Shown: in pieces, positions 2,925-52,869 of the stretch
Position numbering within the stretch: position 1 is the stretch's first letter
Layout: the number at the start of each line of letters is the position of its first letter
From: a virus
DNA: 52,990 bases
Direction: 5' to 3' (one strand)
Virus record (IMG/VR): IMGVR_UViG_3300045988_126024
Made by a program: the position numbers and the translations under genes
Notes under the pieces: generated by a model
The model's input: only the letters and a program-made list of their open reading frames with translations
Told to the model about the DNA's origin: nothing
Database searches by the model: none

Positions 2925-3434
2925 TTACTCCTTTTTGTTCATATCTTTGTGCCTTTTTTTATGGCACTTTTTGCATAAGGTTATTAAGTTTTGCTGTTCA
3001 TCACCGCCACCCTTTGAAACAGGCAAAATATGATGTACTTCGAGTTGTCCGTCGTCAATAGGTACAGGCATATCAAAATTGTTTATAAGTGCGTGAAATT
3101 CGCCACAATCTTGACAAGTGAAATTATCACGATAAAGAATACGCAAAGAGTATGCGTCACGCCCTCTGTTCCATACAGTAGCGTTGTTATATTCTTCTCT
3201 GCAAGTATCACAACAAAACCTACGGCGTTTATTATCTACTGCCTTGCCACACCACGGACATTGATTTTCTTTTTCATATTCAGGTTTGTCAAAATATACA
3301 TTTTCAGCACCGTACATTCTAACCGCTTCATATAAAGCAGGAAAAGGTCGGCGTGTTCCGTGCAATTCCCAATATTTCTTAAAATGGTGCATAGCCGTTG
3401 TTTCTTTTTCTCTCTTTACTTGATAATTCGTCAA
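2925..3434 (-). CDS. HNH endonuclease with zinc-ribbon N-domain
   Basis: Contains CPWCG...RFCCDTCREEY...LEVHHILPVSKGGGDEQQNLITLCKKCHKKRH. The start is uncertain: TTG at 3434 or ATG at 3392. Confidence 0.8.
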   Translation of the reverse strand: MTNYQVKREKETTAMHHFKKYWELHGTRRPFPALYEAVRMYGAENVYFDKPEYEKENQCPWCGKAVDNKRRRFCCDTCREEYNNATVWNRGRDAYSLRILYRDNFTCQDCGEFHALINNFDMPVPIDDGQLEVHHILPVSKGGGDEQQNLITLCKKCHKKRHKDMNKKE

Positions 3435-4519: not shown

Positions 4520-4729
4520 TCAACTCCTATTTAATGCTTCAAGACAATTTGAAACGCAAAAATCATCTTTTATAAACTGTCCATTACTATTCGGTCTTTT
4601 GTACTGCCCTGACAATCGGCAATAATAAACAATTTTATTTTCCATGTTTCTATCTCTCATTAGGTATGGACAATTTGTACAATAAAAACCACTCGGAACA
4701 TTGATTTCTTTTCTATATAGAATTTTCAT
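4520..4729 (-). CDS. Hypothetical Cys-rich protein
   Basis: Complete ORF containing CTNCPY...YYCRL...C. Confidence 0.45.
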   Translation of the reverse strand: MKILYRKEINVPSGFYCTNCPYLMRDRNMENKIVYYCRLSGQYKRPNSNGQFIKDDFCVSNCLEALNRS

Positions 4730-5072
4730 TGTTTAACTCCTTTAACTTTTCTTCTGCTTTCTCTTTTGTAAAAAAGACTACTTTGCCCAACATTAAGTCA
4801 ATTCGACTTTTGTATTTGAGTTTTCCAATAGAGGAAGAAATATACTCAATTTCAATCCACTCTTGCGGATTTGTGAAATAATTATATTCAACTATTGTTA
4901 CTGTTGCTTCGCATATTTCATTTGAACTTCTATGTAAAAACCACACTTTTTCCCCAACATTGAGTGTCGGTTCAATAATGCGTGATTTGTTCTTGAAGTT
5001 CTTGCAAAAAGTTAAAGCATCGTCACATTCAAAACCACACACATCACTGTGATAGCAATTTTCATATCTCAT
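4713..5072 (-). CDS. Hypothetical protein
   Basis: ORF 4713..5108. The preferred start is ATG 5072 (MRYENCYH), which has GGAG 9 nt upstream. Start uncertain. Confidence 0.45.
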   Translation of the reverse strand: MRYENCYHSDVCGFECDDALTFCKNFKNKSRIIEPTLNVGEKVWFLHRSSNEICEATVTIVEYNYFTNPQEWIEIEYISSSIGKLKYKSRIDLMLGKVVFFTKEKAEEKLKELNNENSI

Positions 5073-5959: not shown

Positions 5960-6820
5960 CTATAAAAGTCCGTTTTCTTTTGCAATATCAAGAAATACAT
6001 TGCCGCTTTGCTGTTGTTTGCTATAACCTTGCTGTGCTTCACTATGTGTGTTGTCGCTGTAATTGCCCTCTAAGACCTTTGCAAAATTTGCGTCCTTGAT
6101 AAGCCAATCAAAATTAGCGCTCCAATTTCTATTGTTTGCGCCTTTTAAGAATGCGCTTTGTTCCGCCATTTCAAACATTTGCTTAAACTGTTCAATGGAA
6201 TATGTATGCAATCTTGCTTTGATAGCCTTTTTACGGCTGTCAGACAATACGGTTAATCGGGGGAACGATATGCAAATATCGTTATACAAATCTTTGATTT
6301 GTTCATAATCTATATTCTTCCTCTTATCTTTATCTATATCTTTCTCTTTATCTTCTTCTAATCTTTCTCTGTCGGCGTTACATTGCATTACATCATCATT
6401 ACTGTAATCATTACATTTTTCTTGTAATGCAAGTTTCTTTTGCTTTTCTCTGTGTCTTGCTACCCTTTGCCTGTTCTTTTCTTTTGCCTGTTCCAACTTG
6501 TCTAAGTTTTGGTGCTTTTCCCAATTTGGAATAGTTATAGCACCGTCAACAATCTCAATCATTCCGTATTGCTCAAATACTTGTAGTGCAAGCCTTACGG
6601 TGTTAATAGGTCGTCTAAAAATCGTTGCCAGCATTTCATCAGTATATGCAATTCTTTCATTCAGCATAAAAACGCCTGAATTGTTTTGCTTTCCTGCCAT
6701 ACAAAGCAACTTAAACCAAATAACTATAATGCCGTCTGCTTCGGGCATATTTTCAATGAGCAATATTTTTTCGTCGTTAAATATGTCTGTACATATTTTT
6801 ATCCACTTAACTTCCGACAT
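5960..6820 (-). CDS. Phage replisome organizer / DnaD-domain replication initiation protein
   Basis: N-terminus MSEVKWIKICTDIFNDEKILLIENMPEADGIIVIWFKLLCMAGKQNNSGVF matches the replisome-organizer signature. The linker is acidic/basic and the C-terminus is DnaD-like. Confidence 0.65.
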   Translation of the reverse strand: MSEVKWIKICTDIFNDEKILLIENMPEADGIIVIWFKLLCMAGKQNNSGVFMLNERIAYTDEMLATIFRRPINTVRLALQVFEQYGMIEIVDGAITIPNWEKHQNLDKLEQAKEKNRQRVARHREKQKKLALQEKCNDYSNDDVMQCNADRERLEEDKEKDIDKDKRKNIDYEQIKDLYNDICISFPRLTVLSDSRKKAIKARLHTYSIEQFKQMFEMAEQSAFLKGANNRNWSANFDWLIKDANFAKVLEGNYSDNTHSEAQQGYSKQQQSGNVFLDIAKENGLL

Positions 6821-6823
6821 TGT

Positions 6824-7642
6824 TTACACCTCACTAAACTGTATTTGTTCCGTGTTTATATTTGCGGTACACGCTATATTCAAAGACTTTTCGGGATTTT
6901 CTCGGTAGTATTTCTGAATATAGTATTTTTCTCTTTCGAGGATATTTTCAGTTCTCGGTACAATCTCTATAACTTCAAACTTGTAATCTGTTATGTCTTT
7001 AATCGGAAACCTATTTGTTTTTAAGTGCTGCCCCCACCGAAACACGGGCGCATACATAGTTTGACCGATATAAAATTCACCCGTTGATTTTTTTGAAATT
7101 TTGTATATGTAGCCCGCTATATCCTCTGTGAACATATCTCTTTGAATGTAAAATTCTTGTTCATCATCAGGCTTTAATTTACGGCGTTCCCTCTCCGCAT
7201 ACGCTTGTTTGCACTTGCCACAACAAAAGCGTTTTTCTCCATATTCCTCTATGCCGTAAAAGTCGTGTCGCACTTCATAATCGGCAAAATATATTGCCTT
7301 GCCGTAATATGTCTCTACTGTCGCACCGCAATAATCGCAAGTAAAGGTAACTTTATTGAAATATCGCTCTGTTTTGTAGCAATGTTCCCCAATGATAATG
7401 CAGTACAAGTCACCTGCTTTTAACTTCTTTGAGTAGCGAAAAGCAATTTTTTCTCCGTACTGACTTTTAATTATCTCTTTGAATTGCTCTCTACTGTCGC
7501 ATATCAAGCAATCCATAAGCAGTTCAATATTTTCCGCTTTGCTTGTTGAAGAATACAGCCCAAAATCTAAGTCCTTTTCACGATTTTTTGCGGCTGTTTC
7601 TTCGTCTGCAACTTCGTATATTCTATAAATTATTTCAAGCAT
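6824..7642 (-). CDS. Free-standing GIY-YIG homing endonuclease (Zn-finger N-domain, GIY-YIG C-domain)
   Basis: Contains GYIYKISKKSTGEFYIGQTMYAPVFRWGQHLK...EREKYYIQKYY. The N-half has CDYCG...RFCCGKCKQAY. Confidence 0.75.
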   Translation of the reverse strand: MLEIIYRIYEVADEETAAKNREKDLDFGLYSSTSKAENIELLMDCLICDSREQFKEIIKSQYGEKIAFRYSKKLKAGDLYCIIIGEHCYKTERYFNKVTFTCDYCGATVETYYGKAIYFADYEVRHDFYGIEEYGEKRFCCGKCKQAYAERERRKLKPDDEQEFYIQRDMFTEDIAGYIYKISKKSTGEFYIGQTMYAPVFRWGQHLKTNRFPIKDITDYKFEVIEIVPRTENILEREKYYIQKYYRENPEKSLNIACTANINTEQIQFSEV

Positions 7643-11217: not shown

Positions 11218-11763
11218 TTACATCACATCACTTTCAAATGCCCATTTATAACCACCTGCCGTTTTATATCCATATAAATTACGACAACAACCTGATATAG
11301 CAGATTGATTTATTCCTGTTATCCTTGCGGCTTGTGATGTGCTTTCGTAACTGCCTACGCAATTCATATCACTGTCAAATTGTGAAACTCTTTTACATAC
11401 TTTTTGCAAATGTGCTTTTTTTCTGTTTTCATTAAGACCATTTGCGTTTGCGTGTAGTTGATTTTCACTATTTGTAGCCCATTCAAGATTATCAGCACGG
11501 TTGTTTTGTTTATTTCCGTCTTTATGATTTACTTGCGGTTTATTATCGGAATTGTTTATAAAGGCTTCTGCTACCAATCTGTGTACGCTAACCAACTTAT
11601 TGAAGAAGTGACACTTTGCATATCCTTTTTTATTTGTGTGCAATTTCATAATTCTCGGTATATTTGGGTGTGCATTACATTTAATTAAACTTCTTACCCT
11701 ACCTAAATTACTAACTTGATATAAACCCTCATAACCTTTAACATCTTTCCAAATTTCTGTCAT
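11218..11763 (-). CDS. Free-standing HNH homing endonuclease (NUMOD4 + HNH_3 + C-terminal HTH)
   Basis: Contains EIWKDVKGYEGLYQVSNLGRVRSL...VNHKDGNKQNNRADNLEWATNSENQ... Confidence 0.8.
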   Translation of the reverse strand: MTEIWKDVKGYEGLYQVSNLGRVRSLIKCNAHPNIPRIMKLHTNKKGYAKCHFFNKLVSVHRLVAEAFINNSDNKPQVNHKDGNKQNNRADNLEWATNSENQLHANANGLNENRKKAHLQKVCKRVSQFDSDMNCVGSYESTSQAARITGINQSAISGCCRNLYGYKTAGGYKWAFESDVM

Positions 11764-15769: not shown

Positions 15770-17371
15770 TTGAAAGAGAAGAACAAACAGTATATACGGA
15801 AAGCCGTTGCTTATGCACGGTTTTCATCAAACAATCAGCGGGAGGAAAGCATAGACGCTCAATTAAGGGCTATCAGCGATTATTGCGAGCGTGAGCATAT
15901 CCAATTAGTAGATATTTTTTCTGATGAAGCACAATCCGCTAAAAGCGATAACAGGGACGATTTTAAGAATATGACAGACGCAATATTCAAAGGCAATTAT
16001 GATATTGACGCTGTGTTAGTCCATAAGTTTAACCGCTTTGCTCGTAACAAGTACGATAGCGCATTGTATAAGAAGCGTTTAAGGGATATAGGCATAAAGG
16101 TTGTGTCCGTTACTCAACCGATAGACGATAGCCCCGAGGGTCGTATTTTGGAAAGTATGATAGAAGCAATGGACGAATACTATTCAGAAAACCTTGCGCT
16201 TGAAGTTAAAAAGGGATTGAAAGAGAATGCACTAAAGGGGAAACATACAGGCGGAGGAAAGTTGTTAGGGCTATCCGTTGATAGCGAGGGCTATTATTAC
16301 CCTAATGAGCAAGCGCCTATAGTACGACGCATATTTTCCGAATTTGCAAACGGCGTACCAAAAACAAAGATAGTTGAGCGCTTAAACCGTGAGGGGCACA
16401 GAAACCAATACGGCAGAAAGTTCAACACCCGTACCATTTTAGACCTATTGCAGAATGAAAAATATATAGGCAATTTTGTATATCAACATTCCGTCACCGA
16501 AACAATACGGCTTGACGGTATAATCAAAAATCCGATAGTCGATTATGAATTGTGGGAGCAAGTGCAGTCAAAGCGTAAATCCCACCATAAGCCAAAGCAG
16601 CGAAAAAGAAACTATTTTATGACTGGCAAATTGCGTTGCGGTATCTGCGGATTTACTTATTGCGGGTCAGGCTCTAAAAGGACAAGCAAAAAAGGAAATA
16701 GCCTTGCCGCATATTACAAGTGCAGCGGCAAGACCAAACACAAAAACAGTTGCACCAACACATCACTAAATAAAGAATTTTATGAGCAACTTGTAATCAA
16801 CACTATAATTGAAAATGTCCTTACCGACAATGCAATAAATGATATTGCCGTAAAGACTTATAAGCAATTAGAAAAAGAACGAAAAGCACCGCTTATCCCT
16901 ACCAAAAAATTAAAAAGCCAACTTGAAGCAGTAAGGAAAAAACAGGAAAAACTAATGGAGTTATTCCTCGACGGCAGTATTGATAAAGATATTTTAGATA
17001 CAAGGAATAATAGCTTAAAAGACGAAAAACGACACATTGAAAGTCAAATAGATAAAAACGAGTATCTTGAAAATTCCAACTCACTAACCGTTGCAGATGT
17101 CAGCAAATTTATAAAAGTCTTTGTAAATGAATTAAAGGAAATGCCCGATATTGAGTTCTCACAAATTGTATATAACACTTTTGTTGATAAAATAACAATT
17201 TATCCCGATAGACTTGAAATAGCGTTGAAAGTGGACTTTTCAACGCTATATAGGGGTGATAAAGTGAATTTCAGGGGGGCAATCTGCTCATTAGCACCCG
17301 TTATAGTAGACATAACTGTTAAGCGCAAGTCCCACCAACAAAGTGCTAAACAAAGGGGATTGAAAAGATGA
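15770..17371 (+). CDS. int: Large serine recombinase (integrase)
   Basis: TTG start after GGAGGGG. Has the resolvase catalytic domain AVAYARFSSNNQREESIDAQ, a recombinase domain, a Zn-ribbon CGICGFTYCG...YYKCSGK...C and a coiled-coil. 533 aa. Confidence 0.9.
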   Translation: MKEKNKQYIRKAVAYARFSSNNQREESIDAQLRAISDYCEREHIQLVDIFSDEAQSAKSDNRDDFKNMTDAIFKGNYDIDAVLVHKFNRFARNKYDSALYKKRLRDIGIKVVSVTQPIDDSPEGRILESMIEAMDEYYSENLALEVKKGLKENALKGKHTGGGKLLGLSVDSEGYYYPNEQAPIVRRIFSEFANGVPKTKIVERLNREGHRNQYGRKFNTRTILDLLQNEKYIGNFVYQHSVTETIRLDGIIKNPIVDYELWEQVQSKRKSHHKPKQRKRNYFMTGKLRCGICGFTYCGSGSKRTSKKGNSLAAYYKCSGKTKHKNSCTNTSLNKEFYEQLVINTIIENVLTDNAINDIAVKTYKQLEKERKAPLIPTKKLKSQLEAVRKKQEKLMELFLDGSIDKDILDTRNNSLKDEKRHIESQIDKNEYLENSNSLTVADVSKFIKVFVNELKEMPDIEFSQIVYNTFVDKITIYPDRLEIALKVDFSTLYRGDKVNFRGAICSLAPVIVDITVKRKSHQQSAKQRGLKR

Positions 17372-48378: not shown

Positions 48379-48518
48379 TTTTTTCCTCGCTTCTTCTTTT
48401 TAGATTTATAGTTCGCTATCTTTCTGTCAAATAGCACTTTATTGTCATAAGTAACGGTCATACCGCACCTTTGACATACTCTTACATCATTGACGGTTAC
48501 AAACTCATGATTGCACAT
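48363..48518 (-). CDS. Small zinc-ribbon ORF (51 aa) between TerL and portal
   Basis: TAATG overlap with the TerL stop. Translation MCNHEFVTVNDVRVCQRCGMTVTYDNKVLF...KKKKRGKK. Confidence 0.3.
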   Translation of the reverse strand: MCNHEFVTVNDVRVCQRCGMTVTYDNKVLFDRKIANYKSKKKKRGKKWQEK

Positions 48519-49753
48519 TACAGTCTTGTCCCTGCCTTTACCTCTGCTTCTAACATTTCTTGCTCAAGCGCATATCTCAAAGCGTCTAAAAGGTGATTGT
48601 TTGCGTCAACGGGCTTTGCCATTGCGTTACCGTACTTATCCTCTTGCCAATGGTACTGCTCTATCTCGTTTTTGAAATTTTGGCAGCGCACATCAACGAT
48701 TATTTCGTATGTTTGTAACCACCGTATGCCACGATTGATACTATCCGCACCCTTTACGGCAGGCGTTGCATTTACGCCGTGATTTGCTAAATAGTCAATC
48801 GTTTTAGGCTCTGCACTATCGCAAGTAATGTAATCATCACCGACAAAACTATGTGCTACTCTCACAAGTTCATCATCATTCATTCCCGCTTGGTAGAATT
48901 CATCAAGTATGTAAATCTTTTTGCGGGTTTTATCAATATGCACCTTTATTAAGGCGTTAGGGTCTGACGAATAGCCAAAGTCGCAGCCATAATATAAATG
49001 GTCGAAAGCCTTTGACTGCTCGCTCAAATCCTCTGTATGCCAGTTCTTAAAGATAATGTTGCCGAGTATGCCCCAGTTGCCAAGCGAATACACATTGTAA
49101 AAATATGGGTCGCTCTCATTCTCTAATTGCGCTCTATCTTCGGGGGTCAAAAACAAATTATCCTTGTAGGTGGTCTTTAAGATTAGTAAATTATCATCTT
49201 CATAATAATTTTTGTCGTCTTGCCAACCGCCGAAAAATGTTTGATATATCCAATGTGATTTTAAGATAGGGTTAAATGCTAAAATAATGCCTTTGCGGTG
49301 TTCACTGTAACCACGCAAGCGCTTTGTCAACTGCTTGTAGGCGGCGTACTTTATCTCTGTTGCTTCTTCTACAAATATCCTTTCAAGCACGCCCTCAATC
49401 GGTGTAATTGATTTGACCTTTTCAACATCATCAAGCCCCGCAAACAGTATTTGCTTATTGTTCAGGGTGTTAGTAATAACCATATCCGAGCGGTTTATTC
49501 TGTAATACTCGCTCAAATTCATTTTGATTATTGCCTTTGTTACCTCGTTGAATATACTGTTACGCATTGTTTTAGCAACATTACGACAACAAAGCCAATT
49601 AACGCCGTGCATATTATCAAGTACAATCTTTTGTCCGTTGAAATAAGATTTACCACTTGATGAACCACCGTAAAATATCTGTACAAACTGCGGTTTATTA
49701 AGATATGGAAAATACACGGGGTTTATCTTTACATCAATATCTATTTGTACCAC
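48518..49753 (-). CDS. terL: Terminase large subunit (PBSX-like)
   Basis: Walker A FYGGSSSGKSYF. 411 aa with a nuclease C-half. The GTG start has a poor SD. Confidence 0.85.
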   Translation of the reverse strand: MVQIDIDVKINPVYFPYLNKPQFVQIFYGGSSSGKSYFNGQKIVLDNMHGVNWLCCRNVAKTMRNSIFNEVTKAIIKMNLSEYYRINRSDMVITNTLNNKQILFAGLDDVEKVKSITPIEGVLERIFVEEATEIKYAAYKQLTKRLRGYSEHRKGIILAFNPILKSHWIYQTFFGGWQDDKNYYEDDNLLILKTTYKDNLFLTPEDRAQLENESDPYFYNVYSLGNWGILGNIIFKNWHTEDLSEQSKAFDHLYYGCDFGYSSDPNALIKVHIDKTRKKIYILDEFYQAGMNDDELVRVAHSFVGDDYITCDSAEPKTIDYLANHGVNATPAVKGADSINRGIRWLQTYEIIVDVRCQNFKNEIEQYHWQEDKYGNAMAKPVDANNHLLDALRYALEQEMLEAEVKAGTRL

Positions 49754-49788
49754 CGCCCTTTACATCACATCAAAAAACAACACAAAAA

Positions 49789-49811
49789 AGCGGCTGATTT
49801 GCTCAACCGCT
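49789..49811 (-). terminator. Strand-specific terminator immediately upstream of terL
   Basis: Minus-sense AGCGGTTGA-GCAAA-TCAGCCGCT (9 bp, one G-U pair) followed by T6. Confidence 0.6.
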
Positions 49812-49828
49812 TTTGTCTATTGCTTTTC

Positions 49829-50020
49829 TCATTTCGCCGTTATAATCGGCTTGCCCTTTCTTATATCTTCGCTTATGCTTTGTTGCTCTTGAACGCCGTA
49901 AACAGTGGCGTCGGGTTTATGCGCCCTGAAAAACTGCTCTGCGTGTTCTTTGCTTTCTGCCTTGACTATAATTGCCTGATATACGCCGTTATGCTTGTAA
50001 CTGATATTGTATGCTTTCAT
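49829..50020 (-). CDS. Hypothetical 63-aa protein
   Basis: Complete ORF, the first gene after type-1 cassette C. Confidence 0.5.
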   Translation of the reverse strand: MKAYNISYKHNGVYQAIIVKAESKEHAEQFFRAHKPDATVYGVQEQQSISEDIRKGKPIITAK

Positions 50021-50166: not shown

Positions 50167-50249
50167 TTGACTTTATACTGCTTTTGTAGTATTATATTAT
50201 TGTAAGTTAAAGGCAATAAGCCGACGGGCTTTAAGCGTAGAAAGGTAAA
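50167..50249 (+). promoter_or_regulatory. Type-2 moron promoter/leader cassette, copy 2
   Basis: TTGACT (50167-72), 17 nt, TATTAT (50190-95). The 32-nt leader at 50218-50249 is identical to 44896-44927. Confidence 0.65.
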
Positions 50250-50252
50250 ATC

Positions 50253-50507
50253 ATGACAGATAAAGAAAGACTTGCAGCAATTCGCAAAGAATTGAAAGAA
50301 CACGGCTACAATAACCGCCGTGTCGGTGTATCTTATGACGGCTATGCAATTCGGCTAAATATTAAAGAATTAGCCATTGACAAAAAAGAGATTGAAAACA
50401 TAGCAATGAAATACGAAAATTACAGCCGTGATGAACGCACAGGCGAGATTTTAAGCGGTGGCAATACATTTGTATTTGTTGACTATGATTACCGCTTGAC
50501 AGCATAA
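50253..50507 (+). CDS. Small moron protein resembling polyvalent-protein-associated (LPD-type) domains
   Basis: Contains RLAAIRKELKEHGY...VGVSYDGYAIRLNI...NTFVFVDYDY, a pattern recalled from ICE/phage polyvalent proteins. Confidence 0.4.
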   Translation: MTDKERLAAIRKELKEHGYNNRRVGVSYDGYAIRLNIKELAIDKKEIENIAMKYENYSRDERTGEILSGGNTFVFVDYDYRLTA

Positions 50508-50519
50508 AGGGGCTTAAAA

Positions 50520-50714
50520 ATGAAAACAACAACACTTGCAAATGATATTTATATTCAGGGCTATGGTACATTACCCAAAGGCTTAAAATTGAATGTGAGC
50601 CGTTTTAACAGCCGCTATATATACGCTGATTTGAACGGTTGCACATTGCAGTTGACCTATAAAGATACAACATCAAAAAGACCAAAAAAGGCAACATCAA
50701 GGGCGGTACAATAA
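50520..50714 (+). CDS. Hypothetical 64-aa protein (moron)
   Basis: Complete ORF, co-transcribed with the 50253 gene. Confidence 0.45.
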   Translation: MKTTTLANDIYIQGYGTLPKGLKLNVSRFNSRYIYADLNGCTLQLTYKDTTSKRPKKATSRAVQ

Positions 50715-50720
50715 CCGCCC
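50701..50720. terminator. Terminator at the convergence of the plus-strand morons and the ParB-like gene
   Basis: GGGCGGT-ACAATA-ACCGCCC followed by T5. Confidence 0.65.
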
Positions 50721-50723
50721 TTT

Positions 50724-51386
50724 TTATTTTGCTATGCGCATGATTTTGTCAACGGTCAAATATTCTTCACATACTGGCGTGCTGATTTTCTTGTAGAATT
50801 CTGCACGCTGCTTTTCGTCCTCAAATACAAGAATAGAATAAAAGTTGATATTATTCTTATCTTGCATTCTCTCTTTGCCCGCTTCTCTTGCCGCTTTGAC
50901 TTCTTCAAGTCCCTGCTTCACTTCTTGCGCTTCGGGGGTCTCAAATAGCTGCGTGAACTTTTCGTCACCGTCATACATGAAATCCACATCAGTTTTAGAA
51001 AAGCCCATATCGTCAAAGTCAATACCAAATTCTTCCGTCATATCCGCTAATGCGTCTAAATCCCAGTCGCCCTGCATTGACGGGTTGTTCAACTGAACAT
51101 TTAGTATTGCTTCTTCCTGTTCGTCAACATCAATTACACAAACATCAAGCGTATAATCTTTGCTGCGCTCTAATGCGTCTAACTGTTCAAGTCTTTGGTG
51201 CCCACCTACAAGGTTGCCCGTTCGTCTATTCCAAGTCAGAGTAGATACAAGCCCGTGCTTTCTCAAACCGTCTTTAAGTCGCTTTTTCGCTTCTTTATCC
51301 ATAATGCGTGGGTTGTAGTCGGCGTTCTTAATATCTGCCCTGTTGATTGTTTCAACTGTGAATTTTTGATATTTACTTTGTGCCAT
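50724..51386 (-). CDS. ParB/Srx-fold N-terminal domain protein (no methylase domain)
   Basis: Contains IKNADYNPRIMDKEAKKRLKDGLRKHGLVSTLTWNRRTGNLVGGHQRLEQL...ILNVQLNN. Confidence 0.75.
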   Translation of the reverse strand: MAQSKYQKFTVETINRADIKNADYNPRIMDKEAKKRLKDGLRKHGLVSTLTWNRRTGNLVGGHQRLEQLDALERSKDYTLDVCVIDVDEQEEAILNVQLNNPSMQGDWDLDALADMTEEFGIDFDDMGFSKTDVDFMYDGDEKFTQLFETPEAQEVKQGLEEVKAAREAGKERMQDKNNINFYSILVFEDEKQRAEFYKKISTPVCEEYLTVDKIMRIAK

Positions 51387-51391
51387 TTGGC

Positions 51392-51610
51392 TTAACCTCC
51401 ACTGCTGCCGCTACCCCTGCTTCTGCTTGCCTTTAGCATTGTTCCTTTGTTCACTTTCATTCTGTTAGGAACTCTTACCATAGGCTTATCTCGCAGCATA
51501 CTTACATGATTTCGTGCGTTTCTTGCTCTTTCCTCTTTCGATTGTGAAGAATAATAGGTAGCGGGTGTTGTTCTGACAATTTTTTGTGTTCTCTTAAATG
51601 TTCTTGCCAC
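51392..51610 (-). CDS. Arg-rich 72-aa protein ending in Gly-Gly
   Basis: Complete ORF MARTFKRTQKIVR...SRSRGSGSSGG*, packed between the PP-loop and ParB-like genes. Confidence 0.5.
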   Translation of the reverse strand: MARTFKRTQKIVRTTPATYYSSQSKEERARNARNHVSMLRDKPMVRVPNRMKVNKGTMLKASRSRGSGSSGG

Positions 51611-51623
51611 TCAATCACCTACT

Positions 51624-52286
51624 TTACTTGCCGTACTTTTCAAATCTTTCAACTGCCGCACCTGCAAACGGATAAACCTTTAATATCTTTTCATAATCTG
51701 CGGGGTACATATTTTTGATTGTTGCCAACTCACACCCTGCTAAACTGCGAAAAGAAAAGCCGATTTTCTTTTGTTCGGGGCTTAAATACAGTTTTTTGTA
51801 TTTGATGTACTGTAATACTTCTTGTTTGTTCCAATATGCAATAGGGTAAAAGCGTCCTCGCTTATAGTCTATGCTGCCGCTCTGCTTAATCATTGCATTA
51901 CGCACAATACTATCAGCACAACGCTCACCCGCTGCAATCCAATGTATGCCCGTTCTTTGCCTTAAATATTCGTAAGTGTCTGTAATACCTACAATATCCA
52001 CATTCGGGTCAAACATTGTAAAACTGCCGTACTTTAAGAAGTTTGAACACTCAAAGTGCGGCAGCCTGATGATTTCTATGCCGTATTTATTCTCATACCT
52101 CTTTAGCATTCTTTCTTGGAATTCCAAGTCGGGTACAAGATACATAAAGAACGGCACAACCCTTTTGAAGTACCTAACGCACAAATCAAGCGTTACAATG
52201 CTATCCTTGCCGCCACTAAAGCCGACAATGACGCTATCTGTAACGCTTGCCTGTGTTTTAATGGGGTCAAATAACAAATTGCTCAT
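51624..52286 (-). CDS. PAPS-reductase-like PP-loop ATP pyrophosphatase
   Basis: PP-loop motif VGFSGGKDSIVTLD. 220 aa. Confidence 0.8.
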   Translation of the reverse strand: MSNLLFDPIKTQASVTDSVIVGFSGGKDSIVTLDLCVRYFKRVVPFFMYLVPDLEFQERMLKRYENKYGIEIIRLPHFECSNFLKYGSFTMFDPNVDIVGITDTYEYLRQRTGIHWIAAGERCADSIVRNAMIKQSGSIDYKRGRFYPIAYWNKQEVLQYIKYKKLYLSPEQKKIGFSFRSLAGCELATIKNMYPADYEKILKVYPFAGAAVERFEKYGK

Positions 52287-52288
52287 TA

Positions 52289-52447
52289 TTAACCCCCCAT
52301 TCCGCCGTTAGACTTTCTTCGGAAGCCGTTGTATGCGTCCCGTCGGGTACGACCGAACACACCAGCCATACCTCTTGACTGACCTGTAGCCTTTGCAATT
52401 CGGGACTGCATAGGGGTCTGTCTGCTGCCGTATTTATTCTGTGCCAT
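52289..52447 (-). CDS. Basic 52-aa protein ending in Gly-Gly
   Basis: GGGAGGTGAGAGC precedes ATG 52447. Hand-translated as MAQNKYGSRQTPMQSRIAKATGQSRGMAGVFGRTRRDAYNGFRRKSNGGMGG*. This replaces the ORF-track frame 52267..52455. Confidence 0.5.
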   Translation of the reverse strand: MAQNKYGSRQTPMQSRIAKATGQSRGMAGVFGRTRRDAYNGFRRKSNGGMGG

Positions 52448-52467: not shown

Positions 52468-52869
52468 TTATTCCATATCCTCAACATCTTTGTCAGTTGC
52501 AGGCTGAACGCTGATATTGATTGTGGGTGCTGCACTTTCGGCGGTTTTTGCTTCCGTGTCGCCAACTATTTCGAGTATCTTCGCTATTGCGCTTGCGTCG
52601 CCTGTTGCTGCTGCTTTCATATACATACGAGCCATTAAAAGCATAATGTTTTGTTGTTCTTCGTCCTCAATGCCGAGATTTGATAAAAATTTCTTGTTAT
52701 TTTCGCCTGTAACATCAAGTGAAAGTATCATATTTAGGCATTCTTTTGCTTTCTTTCGCTTCCTTTGTACTTCCTGTGACTTCTTACCGCCTTTTCGTCC
52801 CGCTTCTCTCGCTTGCTCCACGGTTTTGAAGGGCTTCAAATTGTCAATATTTCCTTTTTTCTTTGCCAA
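52468..52869 (-). CDS. terS: Putative terminase small subunit
   Basis: TTG start 8 nt after AGGAGG. The basic N-terminus NLKPFKTVEQAREAGRKGGKKSQEVQRKRKK is typical of small Firmicutes-phage TerS proteins. It is not adjacent to terL. Confidence 0.5.
   Translation of the reverse strand: MAKKKGNIDNLKPFKTVEQAREAGRKGGKKSQEVQRKRKKAKECLNMILSLDVTGENNKKFLSNLGIEDEEQQNIMLLMARMYMKAAATGDASAIAKILEIVGDTEAKTAESAAPTINISVQPATDKDVEDME

Follow-up and report, generated by a model that had tools for sequence, protein, structure and literature searches.

A PP-loop enzyme, a ParB-type protein and glycine-tailed peptides beside the terminase genes of a virus genome: a candidate phage DNA-modification cassette

The virus record IMGVR_UViG_3300045988_126024 is a stretch of 52,990 nucleotides (nt), analysed here at its full length as the one strand given and referred to below as the window. 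Beside its terminase genes it carries a cassette of four genes, which encode a PP-loop enzyme related to PAPS reductases, a protein of the ParB/Srx type and two short Arg-rich peptides that end in Gly-Gly. The PP-loop, ParB-type and peptide genes travel together as a unit, and in related phages the place that they occupy is often taken by other ParB-linked genes of DNA modification. We therefore read the cassette as an optional system with which the phage would modify its own DNA, expressed together with the packaging genes, and we regard the case for this reading as evenly balanced. ParB-linked DNA-modification cassettes of phages are known; the trio of PP-loop enzyme, ParB-type NTPase and tailed peptide is unprecedented.

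The cassette and its slot beside the terminase genes

The original prediction, made from the letters of this stretch alone, described four co-directional, tightly packed genes that follow the small terminase subunit gene, and proposed that they form a phage DNA-modification system. All four are present where it placed them, on the minus strand and with the motifs and ends that it described: peptide 1 (52 amino acids, 52289..52447, with an ATG start preceded by a Shine-Dalgarno sequence), the PP-loop protein (220 amino acids, 51624..52286), peptide 2 (72 amino acids, 51392..51610, with a GTG start) and the ParB/Srx-type protein (220 amino acids, 50724..51386), separated by gaps of 2 to 13 nt. 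The open reading frame (ORF) directly upstream encodes 133 amino acids (52468..52869, minus strand). Its position agrees with the prediction, while its identity as the small terminase subunit, TerS, is putative only: it matches phrog_2412 (3.8e-14), a label without a function, and BLASTP finds a weak similarity (E 5e-5) to the DUF5681 protein that Bacteroides phage BS-TP2 encodes at its TerS position.

The strongest indication of function comes from a comparison of what different phages carry at this site. This swap-site comparison was anchored on the large terminase subunit TerL (48518..49753 in the window, minus strand; Pfam Terminase_3 6.5e-46 and Terminase_3C 4.6e-25) and covered 37 related loci, of which 31, with TerL identities of 54-99%, have enough upstream DNA. 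Nine of the 31 hold a PP-loop gene, a ParB gene and Gly-tailed peptide genes, and all nine have at least one peptide beside the PP-loop gene. Seven others contain a ParB-like gene (phrog_620) with a TGT/DpdA-like gene (phrog_887, up to 5e-54) and a Vut_1/YhhQ-type transporter (2.4e-53), and one of these seven additionally carries a glycosyltransferase. A fusion of ParB_N to an N6_N4 methylase occupies the slot in three loci (L194 and L215 among them), a ParB-like gene with a radical-SAM enzyme and a pyridoxal-phosphate (PLP) enzyme in one (L213), and a Dam-like with a GNAT protein in one (L210), and the remaining ten have no such cassette. Phages whose TerL is 67-74% identical to that of the window either miss the cassette wholly or have a DNA-modification cassette in its stead; since these close relatives package their DNA without it, the cassette is accessory rather than essential for packaging. 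The window cassette shares the pattern of the slot, namely a ParB gene by an enzyme gene, placed before TerS/TerL and variably present among relatives. Because known ParB-linked DNA-modification genes sit in the same slot, it can be read as an accessory, ParB-assisted DNA-modification cassette, and it appears from these gene contents to be interchangeable with the known modules, in agreement with the function originally proposed.

The comparison also bears on the peptides. A Gly-tailed peptide is encoded in 9/9 loci with the PP-loop gene and in 0/22 without it (exact probability about 5e-8, own calculation). The link holds over a wider set, as 30 of 32 Bacillota/Actinomycetota-type loci of the family have a basic small ORF with a Gly/Ser tail beside the PP-loop gene (27 of them GG-terminated), against a background in which 9 of 2434 small ORFs elsewhere in those loci qualify as basic and Gly/Ser-tailed. 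The original prediction had named co-occurrence of the small ORFs with the PP-loop/ParB pair as a check on itself, and the strict linkage of tailed peptides to the PP-loop gene supports it.

Two other occupants of the slot are recorded here for their own sake. The cassette of L213 (IMGVR_UViG_3300014761_000013, 29-2474) consists of a ParB-like gene, a radical-SAM gene (phrog_13321) and a PLP-dependent enzyme gene (phrog_3650); its ParB-like protein is the closest to that of the window among the slot ParBs, with 36% identity, and the whole is another candidate DNA-modification system, apparently uncharacterised. In L210 (2199-3623) a phage Dam-like domain (PF22555, 2.9e-81) is fused to a phage GNAT-like domain (PF22559, 3.8e-51).

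The glycine-tailed peptides

Both peptides are rich in arginine. Peptide 1, whose ATG is preceded at 6 nt by GGGAGGTG, has the head ..MQSRIAKATG.. and the C-terminus FRRKSNGGMGG-COOH, and peptide 2 ends SRSRGSGSSGG-COOH; they contain 11 and 18 Lys/Arg residues against 1 and 3 Asp/Glu residues, respectively. Among the 541 six-frame ORFs of at least 30 amino acids in the window these two are the only ones that terminate in Gly-Gly, and the GG ends of both are not due to chance. Neither peptide has a match in Pfam, PHROG, NCBIfam or PADLOC.

A homologue search with peptide 1 returned 6 clusters, and an exhaustive profile search returned 14 representatives of 43-93 amino acids, none of which (0/14) is fused to another domain. 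The family shares a head motif, (I/V)Q(R/K)RI(N)RxTG, and a tail motif, FRRKSxGGxGG, and in 13 of the 14 representatives the profile match extends to the last residue. The exception, the metagenomic peptide-1 homologue P0256, reads ...RRKSSGGHGRLIWPPICLTR rather than stopping at GG, and is probably a frameshift or read-through variant. In nearly all loci of at least 52% identity a small Arg-rich ORF that ends [RK][RK]KSxGGxGG lies directly upstream of the PP-loop gene; tails found in relatives include RRKSLGGKGG, RRKSTGGSGG, RRKSAGGSGG, RRISNGGNGG and RSRGFGGSGG.

Codon changes between related loci show that the small ORFs are real genes under purifying selection in the peptide frame. Between peptide 1 of the window and that of L004 there are 14 synonymous changes and no non-synonymous one; the corresponding counts are 21 and 2 between L022 and L024, and 12 and 5 between L008 and L012. 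Read in the peptide frame these differences are synonymous, and in either of the remaining two frames they are non-synonymous. Similarly, peptide 2 differs from its counterpart in L003 by two changes, both synonymous. Peptide 2 is found in L003, L006 and L007, where its tail varies yet remains GG-terminated, and is absent from L004/L005 and from more distant loci, so that peptide 1 is the conserved family member and peptide 2 an accessory second copy. Other cassettes encode one to three tail-bearing proteins of 32-141 amino acids in variable positions. The reservation in the original prediction that the Gly-Gly termini may be coincidental can be set aside for the lineage of the window, given their conservation, the purifying selection and the linkage to the PP-loop gene.

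Tails and cassettes in other phage lineages

Relatives of the PP-loop protein were gathered from IMG/VR (loci L003-L030), from deposited phages (Lactobacillus LR1 and JNU_P7, Pasteurella Pm86, Riemerella RAP44, Bacteroides BS-TP2, Cutibacterium CA1NRNZ and Bifidobacterium BigBern1) and from bacterial genomes and metagenome-assembled genomes (MAGs), viz. a Clostridia MAG, Enterococcus florum and an Eggerthellaceae MAG. A profile scan of genome contigs with a narrower alignment picked up generic patterns, and 4 of its 44 loci were true relatives. Beside TerS/TerL, phages of Bacillota, Actinomycetota, Bacteroidota and Pasteurellaceae keep the same order of peptide, PP-loop and ParB genes.

The last residues of the peptides are less constant than this order. 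In 79 of 80 loci resembling Bacteroides phage BS-TP2 the homologous upstream ORF ends ...AFSGAGGK or ...RGANGSNG, the peptide ORF of RAP44 ends ...RRLKANGAI, and 20 of 21 Pm86-like Pasteurellaceae loci have one or two ORFs without annotation, ending ...SRSSGS, that lie between TerS and the PP-loop partner. The description of these products as GG-terminated therefore holds for 27 of the 32 loci of the window's lineage and fails for Bacteroides (GGK or NG), Pasteurellaceae (SSGS) and RAP44 (NGAI). Judged from these sequences, the Gly-Gly terminus is a trait of the window's lineage only, and what unites the lineages is an Arg-rich peptide that is short and carries a flexible, small-residue tail, rather than a strict Gly-Gly carboxylate.

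Some of the relatives differ in gene content. In Pm86 (L031, MH238467) two unannotated small basic ORFs, at 4613-4750 and 4763-4861, lie between ORF52 and ORF53. In JNU_P7 (L002) the ParB-like gene is divided between two ORFs (6459-6770 and 6828-7157), a frameshift or pseudogene, and three Gly-Gly-tailed proteins of 99-140 amino acids are encoded around it. Inserts with ORFs of 166, 183 and 161 amino acids, the last of these possibly HNH-like, separate the PP-loop and ParB-like genes in L008 (4620-5120), L011 (4905-5456) and L012 (4620-5629), so the cassette tolerates insertions.

The PP-loop enzyme

The PP-loop protein matches Pfam PAPS_reduct (PF01507, 8.6e-11) and phrog_424 (2.3e-22), with the sequence FSGGKDS at residues 23-29 (SGGKDS at 24-29). 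An alignment of 17 family members with 24-84% identity has the invariant positions S24, G26, K27, D28, E65, H77, G120, D125, P148, P195, D197 and P206, and contains no conserved cysteine column. AlphaFold2 (AF2) models of this protein and of the ParB-type protein were built on shallow alignments of 74-98% identity; that of the PP-loop protein (pLDDT 82) has a strand at 18-22 followed by a helix at 27-39. With this model Foldseek found TtuA/NcsA, LarE, NAD and GMP synthetases and Cap9 via their common core. The best E-values, 3.5e-7 to 2e-6 at a TMt of 0.36-0.39, were those of TtuA/NcsA, including the TtuA-TtuB complex 5gha, and the best superposition was with APS/PAPS reductases, CysD and the PAPS domain of FAD synthase (root-mean-square deviation, rmsd, 4-6 Å; TMt 0.5-0.6), the PAPS/APS reductases 2goy, 4bwv, 1sur and 6vpu lying at 5-6 Å. 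The family profile, when run against PDB sequences, matched CysD best (6.8e-5), and single-sequence searches of the same sequences with the cassette proteins gave no useful match. Sequence and model together point to an ATP pyrophosphatase of the PAPS-reductase/CysD fold, that is, to an adenylating enzyme, and the intact SGGKDS with the conserved E65, H77 and D125 suggests that it is catalytically active in adenylation.

Membership of the better known families of this fold was considered and rejected, the absence of a conserved cysteine counting at once against CysH, DndC and TtuA. Canonical CysH has the same fold, and the window protein lacks the C-terminal cysteine of the ECGLH type and scores far below the curated NCBIfam cut-offs (PRK02090, 20 bits vs 154; TIGR00434, 15 vs 165; TIGR02057, 14 vs 254). 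DndC would call for Fe-S cysteines and a Cys dyad, which are absent, as are Dnd partners among the annotated window genes; the NCBIfam DndC model TIGR03183 gives 12 bits vs 290, TtcA 12 vs 272, and the PADLOC DndC model an E-value of 0.016. Assignment to TtuA/Ncs6 fails on the missing Fe-S cysteines and Zn fingers and on length (220 against about 300 amino acids). The PAPS-reductase-domain gene of BREX type 4 to which the original prediction referred is indeed BrxP, and the PADLOC match to BrxP (24 bits) is limited to residues 16-46, with no BREX genes seen among the annotated window genes.

The ParB-type protein

The ParB-type protein has no Pfam match; in PHROG it matches phrog_9353 (4e-64), the ParB-like phrog_620 (6e-24) and, with its N-terminal part, the methyltransferase family phrog_498 (5.5e-23), and in PADLOC it matches MTase_II (6e-14). 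It consists of an N-domain (about residues 1-100) bearing the DYNPR...GGHQR motifs, an acidic linker (about 139-185) and a small C-terminal domain. The invariant residues of the family alignment are R16, N25, P26, R27, G62, H63, Q64 and N100, and include those of the NPR and GGHQR motifs (G62-H63-Q64, with R65). The AF2 model has a pLDDT of 64 overall, 73-87 in the N-domain and below 50 in the linker, which is probably disordered, and the model is poor past residue 100. Foldseek matched it to 6sdk (ParB-CDP, 6.8e-6), 5k5d, pNOB8 ParB-N, Noc, KorB, PadC and Srx, and profile matches to Spo0J/ParB/Noc were of 0.003-0.008. The N-domain is accordingly predicted by the model to resemble in its fold sulfiredoxin as well as the CTP-binding domain of ParB, Noc, KorB and PadC.

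A canonical partition ParB was rejected as an identity, as there is no helix-turn-helix, the protein continues into an acidic linker and a small C-terminal domain, and no parA occurs among the annotated window genes. The idea that the ParB-type subunit targets the DNA is weakened: only the NTPase-type N-domain is present, no helix-turn-helix was found among the Pfam and PHROG matches, and the protein is net acidic (32 Lys/Arg against 45 Asp/Glu residues; the PP-loop protein has 32 against 25). For these reasons, and by analogy with DpdB, a role as an NTPase would fit better than sequence-specific targeting.

Proposed mechanism and alternative explanations

Beyond the observed composition, linkage, selection and position of the cassette, we infer a substrate and a chemistry by comparison with the deazaguanine system that holds the same slot in other phages. 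There, the ATPase activity of the ParB-like DpdB, which depends on its DGQQR motif, is needed in vitro for the insertion of preQ0 into DNA by DpdA (PMC10164549; PMC12839542), and the preQ0 transporter YhhQ is present in some DpdA phages (PMC6884629). The invariant GGHQR of the window protein is at the place homologous to DGQQR. The ParB-type NTPase could thus make duplex DNA accessible, as DpdB does for DpdA, while the PP-loop enzyme would use ATP to adenylate an oxygen, either a base carbonyl or phosphate of the DNA, in the manner of other PP-loop and CysD/FMNAT-type enzymes, or the C-terminal carboxylate of the peptide. The peptide would act as co-substrate, carrier or DNA-binding adaptor, its small-residue tail entering the active site, and would fill the place that precursor supply has in the deazaguanine cassette. 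Progeny DNA modified in this way would bear a mark that blunts host restriction. A bolder form of the proposal, which we put forward tentatively and consider rather doubtful, makes the ribosomal peptide a stoichiometric co-substrate of DNA modification, with its Gly-rich C-terminus joined to the DNA as an adduct or end-cap, or with the tail as carrier or donor of a group. If so, and with the same reserve, this would be a new class of peptide-dependent DNA modification that does without sulfur-relay or cofactor-biosynthesis genes.

Several points weigh against a role in DNA modification. Positional replacement is guilt by association, and the slot could host any accessory gene, as the moron-like genes nearby illustrate. 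The ParB-type protein is without a recognisable DNA-binding domain and, as noted, net acidic, and in Pm86-type phages the PP-loop partner ORF52 seems to lack the ParB N-domain, ORF52-type proteins having a weak match to the ParB-like C-terminal domain (hhalign probability 33%, E 4.5e-4). Because the terminal residues of the tail differ between lineages, it is not certain that one chemistry acts on a Gly-Gly carboxylate throughout. We know of no PP-loop enzyme shown to modify DNA without sulfur-relay partners, and in the literature we found no publication that describes the peptide family, tests the module or reports modified DNA in phages that carry the cassette.

The alternative that has most in its favour, although we consider it unlikely, is a chemistry directed at the peptide itself or at protein, in which the PP-loop enzyme adenylates the tail carboxylate and DNA is not the substrate. 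PP-loop enzymes adenylate carboxylates, and Srx and SerK have proteins or amino acids as their substrates; the ParB/Srx-type enzyme may then phosphorylate the tail, and the peptide may be amidated, made into a peptidyl-nucleotide or ligated to a target as a disordered tag in the manner of Pup or ubiquitin. That the RRKSxGGxGG-COOH tail is the most conserved part of the peptide and that all 14 profile matches are free-standing would suit this, as would the one to three peptide paralogues per cassette, whose variable bodies are expected of substrates, the QueC-family enzymes Cap9 and QatC, which act on flexible Gly-motif termini of partner proteins, and a ParB-type protein that lacks a helix-turn-helix and has a fold that includes the protein-modifying sulfiredoxin. 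It has to contend with a slot that otherwise holds DNA-modification cassettes with the same type of ParB, with tails that end in K, S or I in other lineages, and with the absence of a ligase, E2-like or protease partner and of an evident target. We find it improbable that the cassette is a minimal TtuA/TtuB- or DndC-like system, in which the peptide is a Gly-Gly thiocarboxylate carrier for a PP-loop DNA thiolase. Although the best Foldseek E-values are to TtuA/NcsA, a GG-ending peptide is present in 27 of 32 lineage loci, and the fold family includes DndC and BrxP, the TM-scores of about 0.5 go no further than the common PP-loop core, and PAPS/APS reductases, CysD and FMNAT superpose better. 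The lack of a conserved cysteine (17 sequences) removes the Fe-S site of TtuA/DndC and the catalytic cysteine of MnmA/ThiI/CysH alike, and the DndC and TtcA models score as poorly as given above. The peptides themselves contain no cysteine, are of 32-72 amino acids and of low complexity, which makes a beta-grasp fold unlikely, and have tails other than GG in other lineages; no E1-like activator, rhodanese or desulfurase was found among the annotated window genes. The sulfur chemistry implied by the original prediction is thus not borne out, and sulfur transfer, whether to a thio-base or to a phosphorothioate, would be the less likely chemistry, since the cassette has no component able to carry a persulfide or an Fe-S cluster.

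A non-covalent helper of packaging, which we hold to be as improbable as thiolation, would account for the constant adjacency of the cassette to TerS/TerL in four bacterial phyla: the strongly basic peptides would serve to condense DNA, to neutralise it or to bind either TerS or the portal, and the pac region would be marked or nicked by the ParB-like protein, with its acidic linker. ParB-like nucleases are often annotated close to terminases. This explanation gives no role to a conserved, intact ATP pyrophosphatase, leaves the strict linkage of peptide and PP-loop gene unexplained, and does not agree with the relatives of 67-74% TerL identity that lack the cassette or have a DNA-modification cassette. 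The labels PAPS_reduct and phrog_424, the latter in the PHROG category 'moron, auxiliary metabolic gene', would make the enzyme a true PAPS reductase that boosts host sulfate assimilation, with the small ORFs irrelevant, and this reading of phage PAPS reductases is repeated in papers. For the window we consider it highly improbable, as the catalytic C-terminal cysteine of CysH is absent, the SGGKDS loop is of the canonical ATP type, the CysH models stay at 14-20 bits, and the gene, which sits at a DNA-modification slot, is tied obligately to the peptides and a ParB-type gene. Barely credible, finally, is the notion that the downstream Shine-Dalgarno sequence gives rise to the GG ends as a by-product or that the small ORFs arose by chance. 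In many low-GC loci the final pair of Gly codons reads GGA GGT or GGG GGT and lies 6-9 nt ahead of the following start codon, and it often doubles as the GGAGGT Shine-Dalgarno sequence of the next gene. In high-GC loci GGC GGC stands in place of these codons, and the overlap is for that reason a partial explanation of the tail at most. RRKS and the first GG are kept through synonymous changes (the tail codons of different loci read, for example, CGA AGA AAG TCT or CGG CGC AAG TCG), it is only in the peptide frame that changes are synonymous (14/14 and 21/23), the N-terminal motif is conserved in the family, and the GG end is as rare in the window as stated above.

The surrounding genome

At about 53 kb the window resembles the complete genome of a temperate siphovirus and appears to be a whole, circularly permuted prophage genome from the gut. 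Its annotated genes include a serine integrase (15770-17371, plus strand), Erf, SSB, a DnaD-like loader, a primase, a dUTPase and HNH genes; the replication module contains two HNH endonuclease genes and one homing-endonuclease-like gene (2925-3434, 6824-7642 and 11218-11763, all on the minus strand). No methyltransferase, cysteine desulfurase, E1-like enzyme or cofactor pathway was found among the annotated window genes, and the cassette is therefore taken to be self-contained. Relatives of the window are frequent in gut metagenomes and in Clostridia/Acutalibacteraceae MAGs, and a blastn search with the cassette region gave a single match of 170 nt to deposited phages.

The ParB-like gene is followed by a two-gene cassette on the opposite strand, by TerL and by the portal gene. 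The two small ORFs of the opposite-strand cassette (50253-50714, plus strand; 84 and 64 amino acids) have no family match, and the cassette, which has its own promoter-like site and a strong terminator-like hairpin (sites 50167-50195 and 50699-50722), looks like a moron. A further terminator-like hairpin (49786-49814, minus strand) lies just upstream of TerL, after a 63-amino-acid ORF (49829-50020, minus strand; phrog_2920), and owing to it TerS and the modification cassette may be transcribed separately from TerL and the portal gene.

Wider significance

Phage genes annotated as 'PAPS reductase' are routinely labelled as auxiliary genes of sulfur metabolism, and for this widespread PP-loop family the label is wrong. 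If the cassette modifies DNA, it would add a new chemistry to the anti-restriction modifications of phages, with a bearing on host range in phage therapy, on sequencing artefacts and on enzymes for DNA labelling. Bacterial pairs of PAPS-reductase-like and ParB-like genes (YbdN/YbdM, IbrA/IbrB) would gain a function, and the peptide would be the first small ribosomal peptide to serve as obligatory partner of a nucleic-acid-modifying PP-loop enzyme. Cultivable carriers of the cassette exist, viz. Lactobacillus phages LR1 and JNU_P7, Riemerella RAP44, Bacteroides BS-TP2 and Pasteurella Pm86.

Comparison with known systems

The DpdA/DpdB modules resemble the cassette most in their organisation, with a ParB-type NTPase paired with a DNA-modifying enzyme, the same terminase slot in TerL relatives, and DGQQR in DpdB where the window has GGHQR. 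They differ in the effector, which in the window is a PP-loop ATP pyrophosphatase and not a transglycosylase, and in the precursor transporter, in place of which the window has tail-bearing peptides. Fusions of ParB_N to a methyltransferase of the phrog_498 type share the homologous ParB N-domain and the genomic slot (L194, L215), whereas the ParB of the window is separate, lacks a methylase domain, and has instead an acidic linker and a small C-terminal domain.

DndC with DndB, and BrxP of BREX type 4, likewise combine a PP-loop ATPase of the PAPS-reductase fold with a DNA-acting protein of the ParB superfamily, or have one nearby; unlike them, the window cassette has no Fe-S cysteines, Cys dyad, DndA/D/E or BREX partners, and the DndC and BrxP models match its enzyme at the PP-loop motif only (12 and 24 bits). 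The original prediction also pointed to pairs of the IbrB/IbrA type, and such a pair does exist in Escherichia coli K-12 as ybdN/ybdM, in the same order of PP-loop and then ParB-like gene and with overlapping genes. YbdN, however, has 406 amino acids with a DUF3440 extension against 220 without it in the window enzyme, the two are similar by BLASTP at the PP-loop motif only (E 8e-4), and their ParB proteins are not significantly similar. The pair is chromosomal rather than beside a terminase, and no Gly-tailed small ORF was found at the E. coli ybdNM locus.

TtuA/TtuB and Ncs6/Urm1 provide the precedent for a PP-loop enzyme with a small Gly-Gly-terminated partner. That thiolases of the TtuA type take sulfur from such carriers, as the original prediction stated, agrees with the crystallisation of TtuA with the sulfur carrier TtuB, and TtuA has the best Foldseek E-values. 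The substrates of TtuA and Ncs6 are tRNAs. The window differs from these systems in lacking Zn fingers, Fe-S cysteines and an E1-like activator, and its partner is a basic, low-complexity peptide of 32-72 amino acids rather than a beta-grasp protein. Cap9 of type IV CBASS and QatC of QatABCD offer a second precedent, in which a PP-loop enzyme has been repurposed for the flexible, glycine-motif terminus of a dedicated partner in phage-host conflict; these enzymes are of the QueC clade, conjugate 7-deazaguanine to the N-terminus of a folded protein, and serve host defence rather than being phage genes. In overall structure the nearest relatives of the window enzyme are CysH, CysD and FMNAT, with the best superposition and, for CysD, the best PDB profile match, although it has neither a catalytic cysteine, nor a CysN partner, nor an FMN-binding context. 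CysD and FMNAT transfer AMP to an oxyanion, and it is a reaction of this kind, with ATP used to adenylate an oxygen, that we propose for the PP-loop enzyme of the window.

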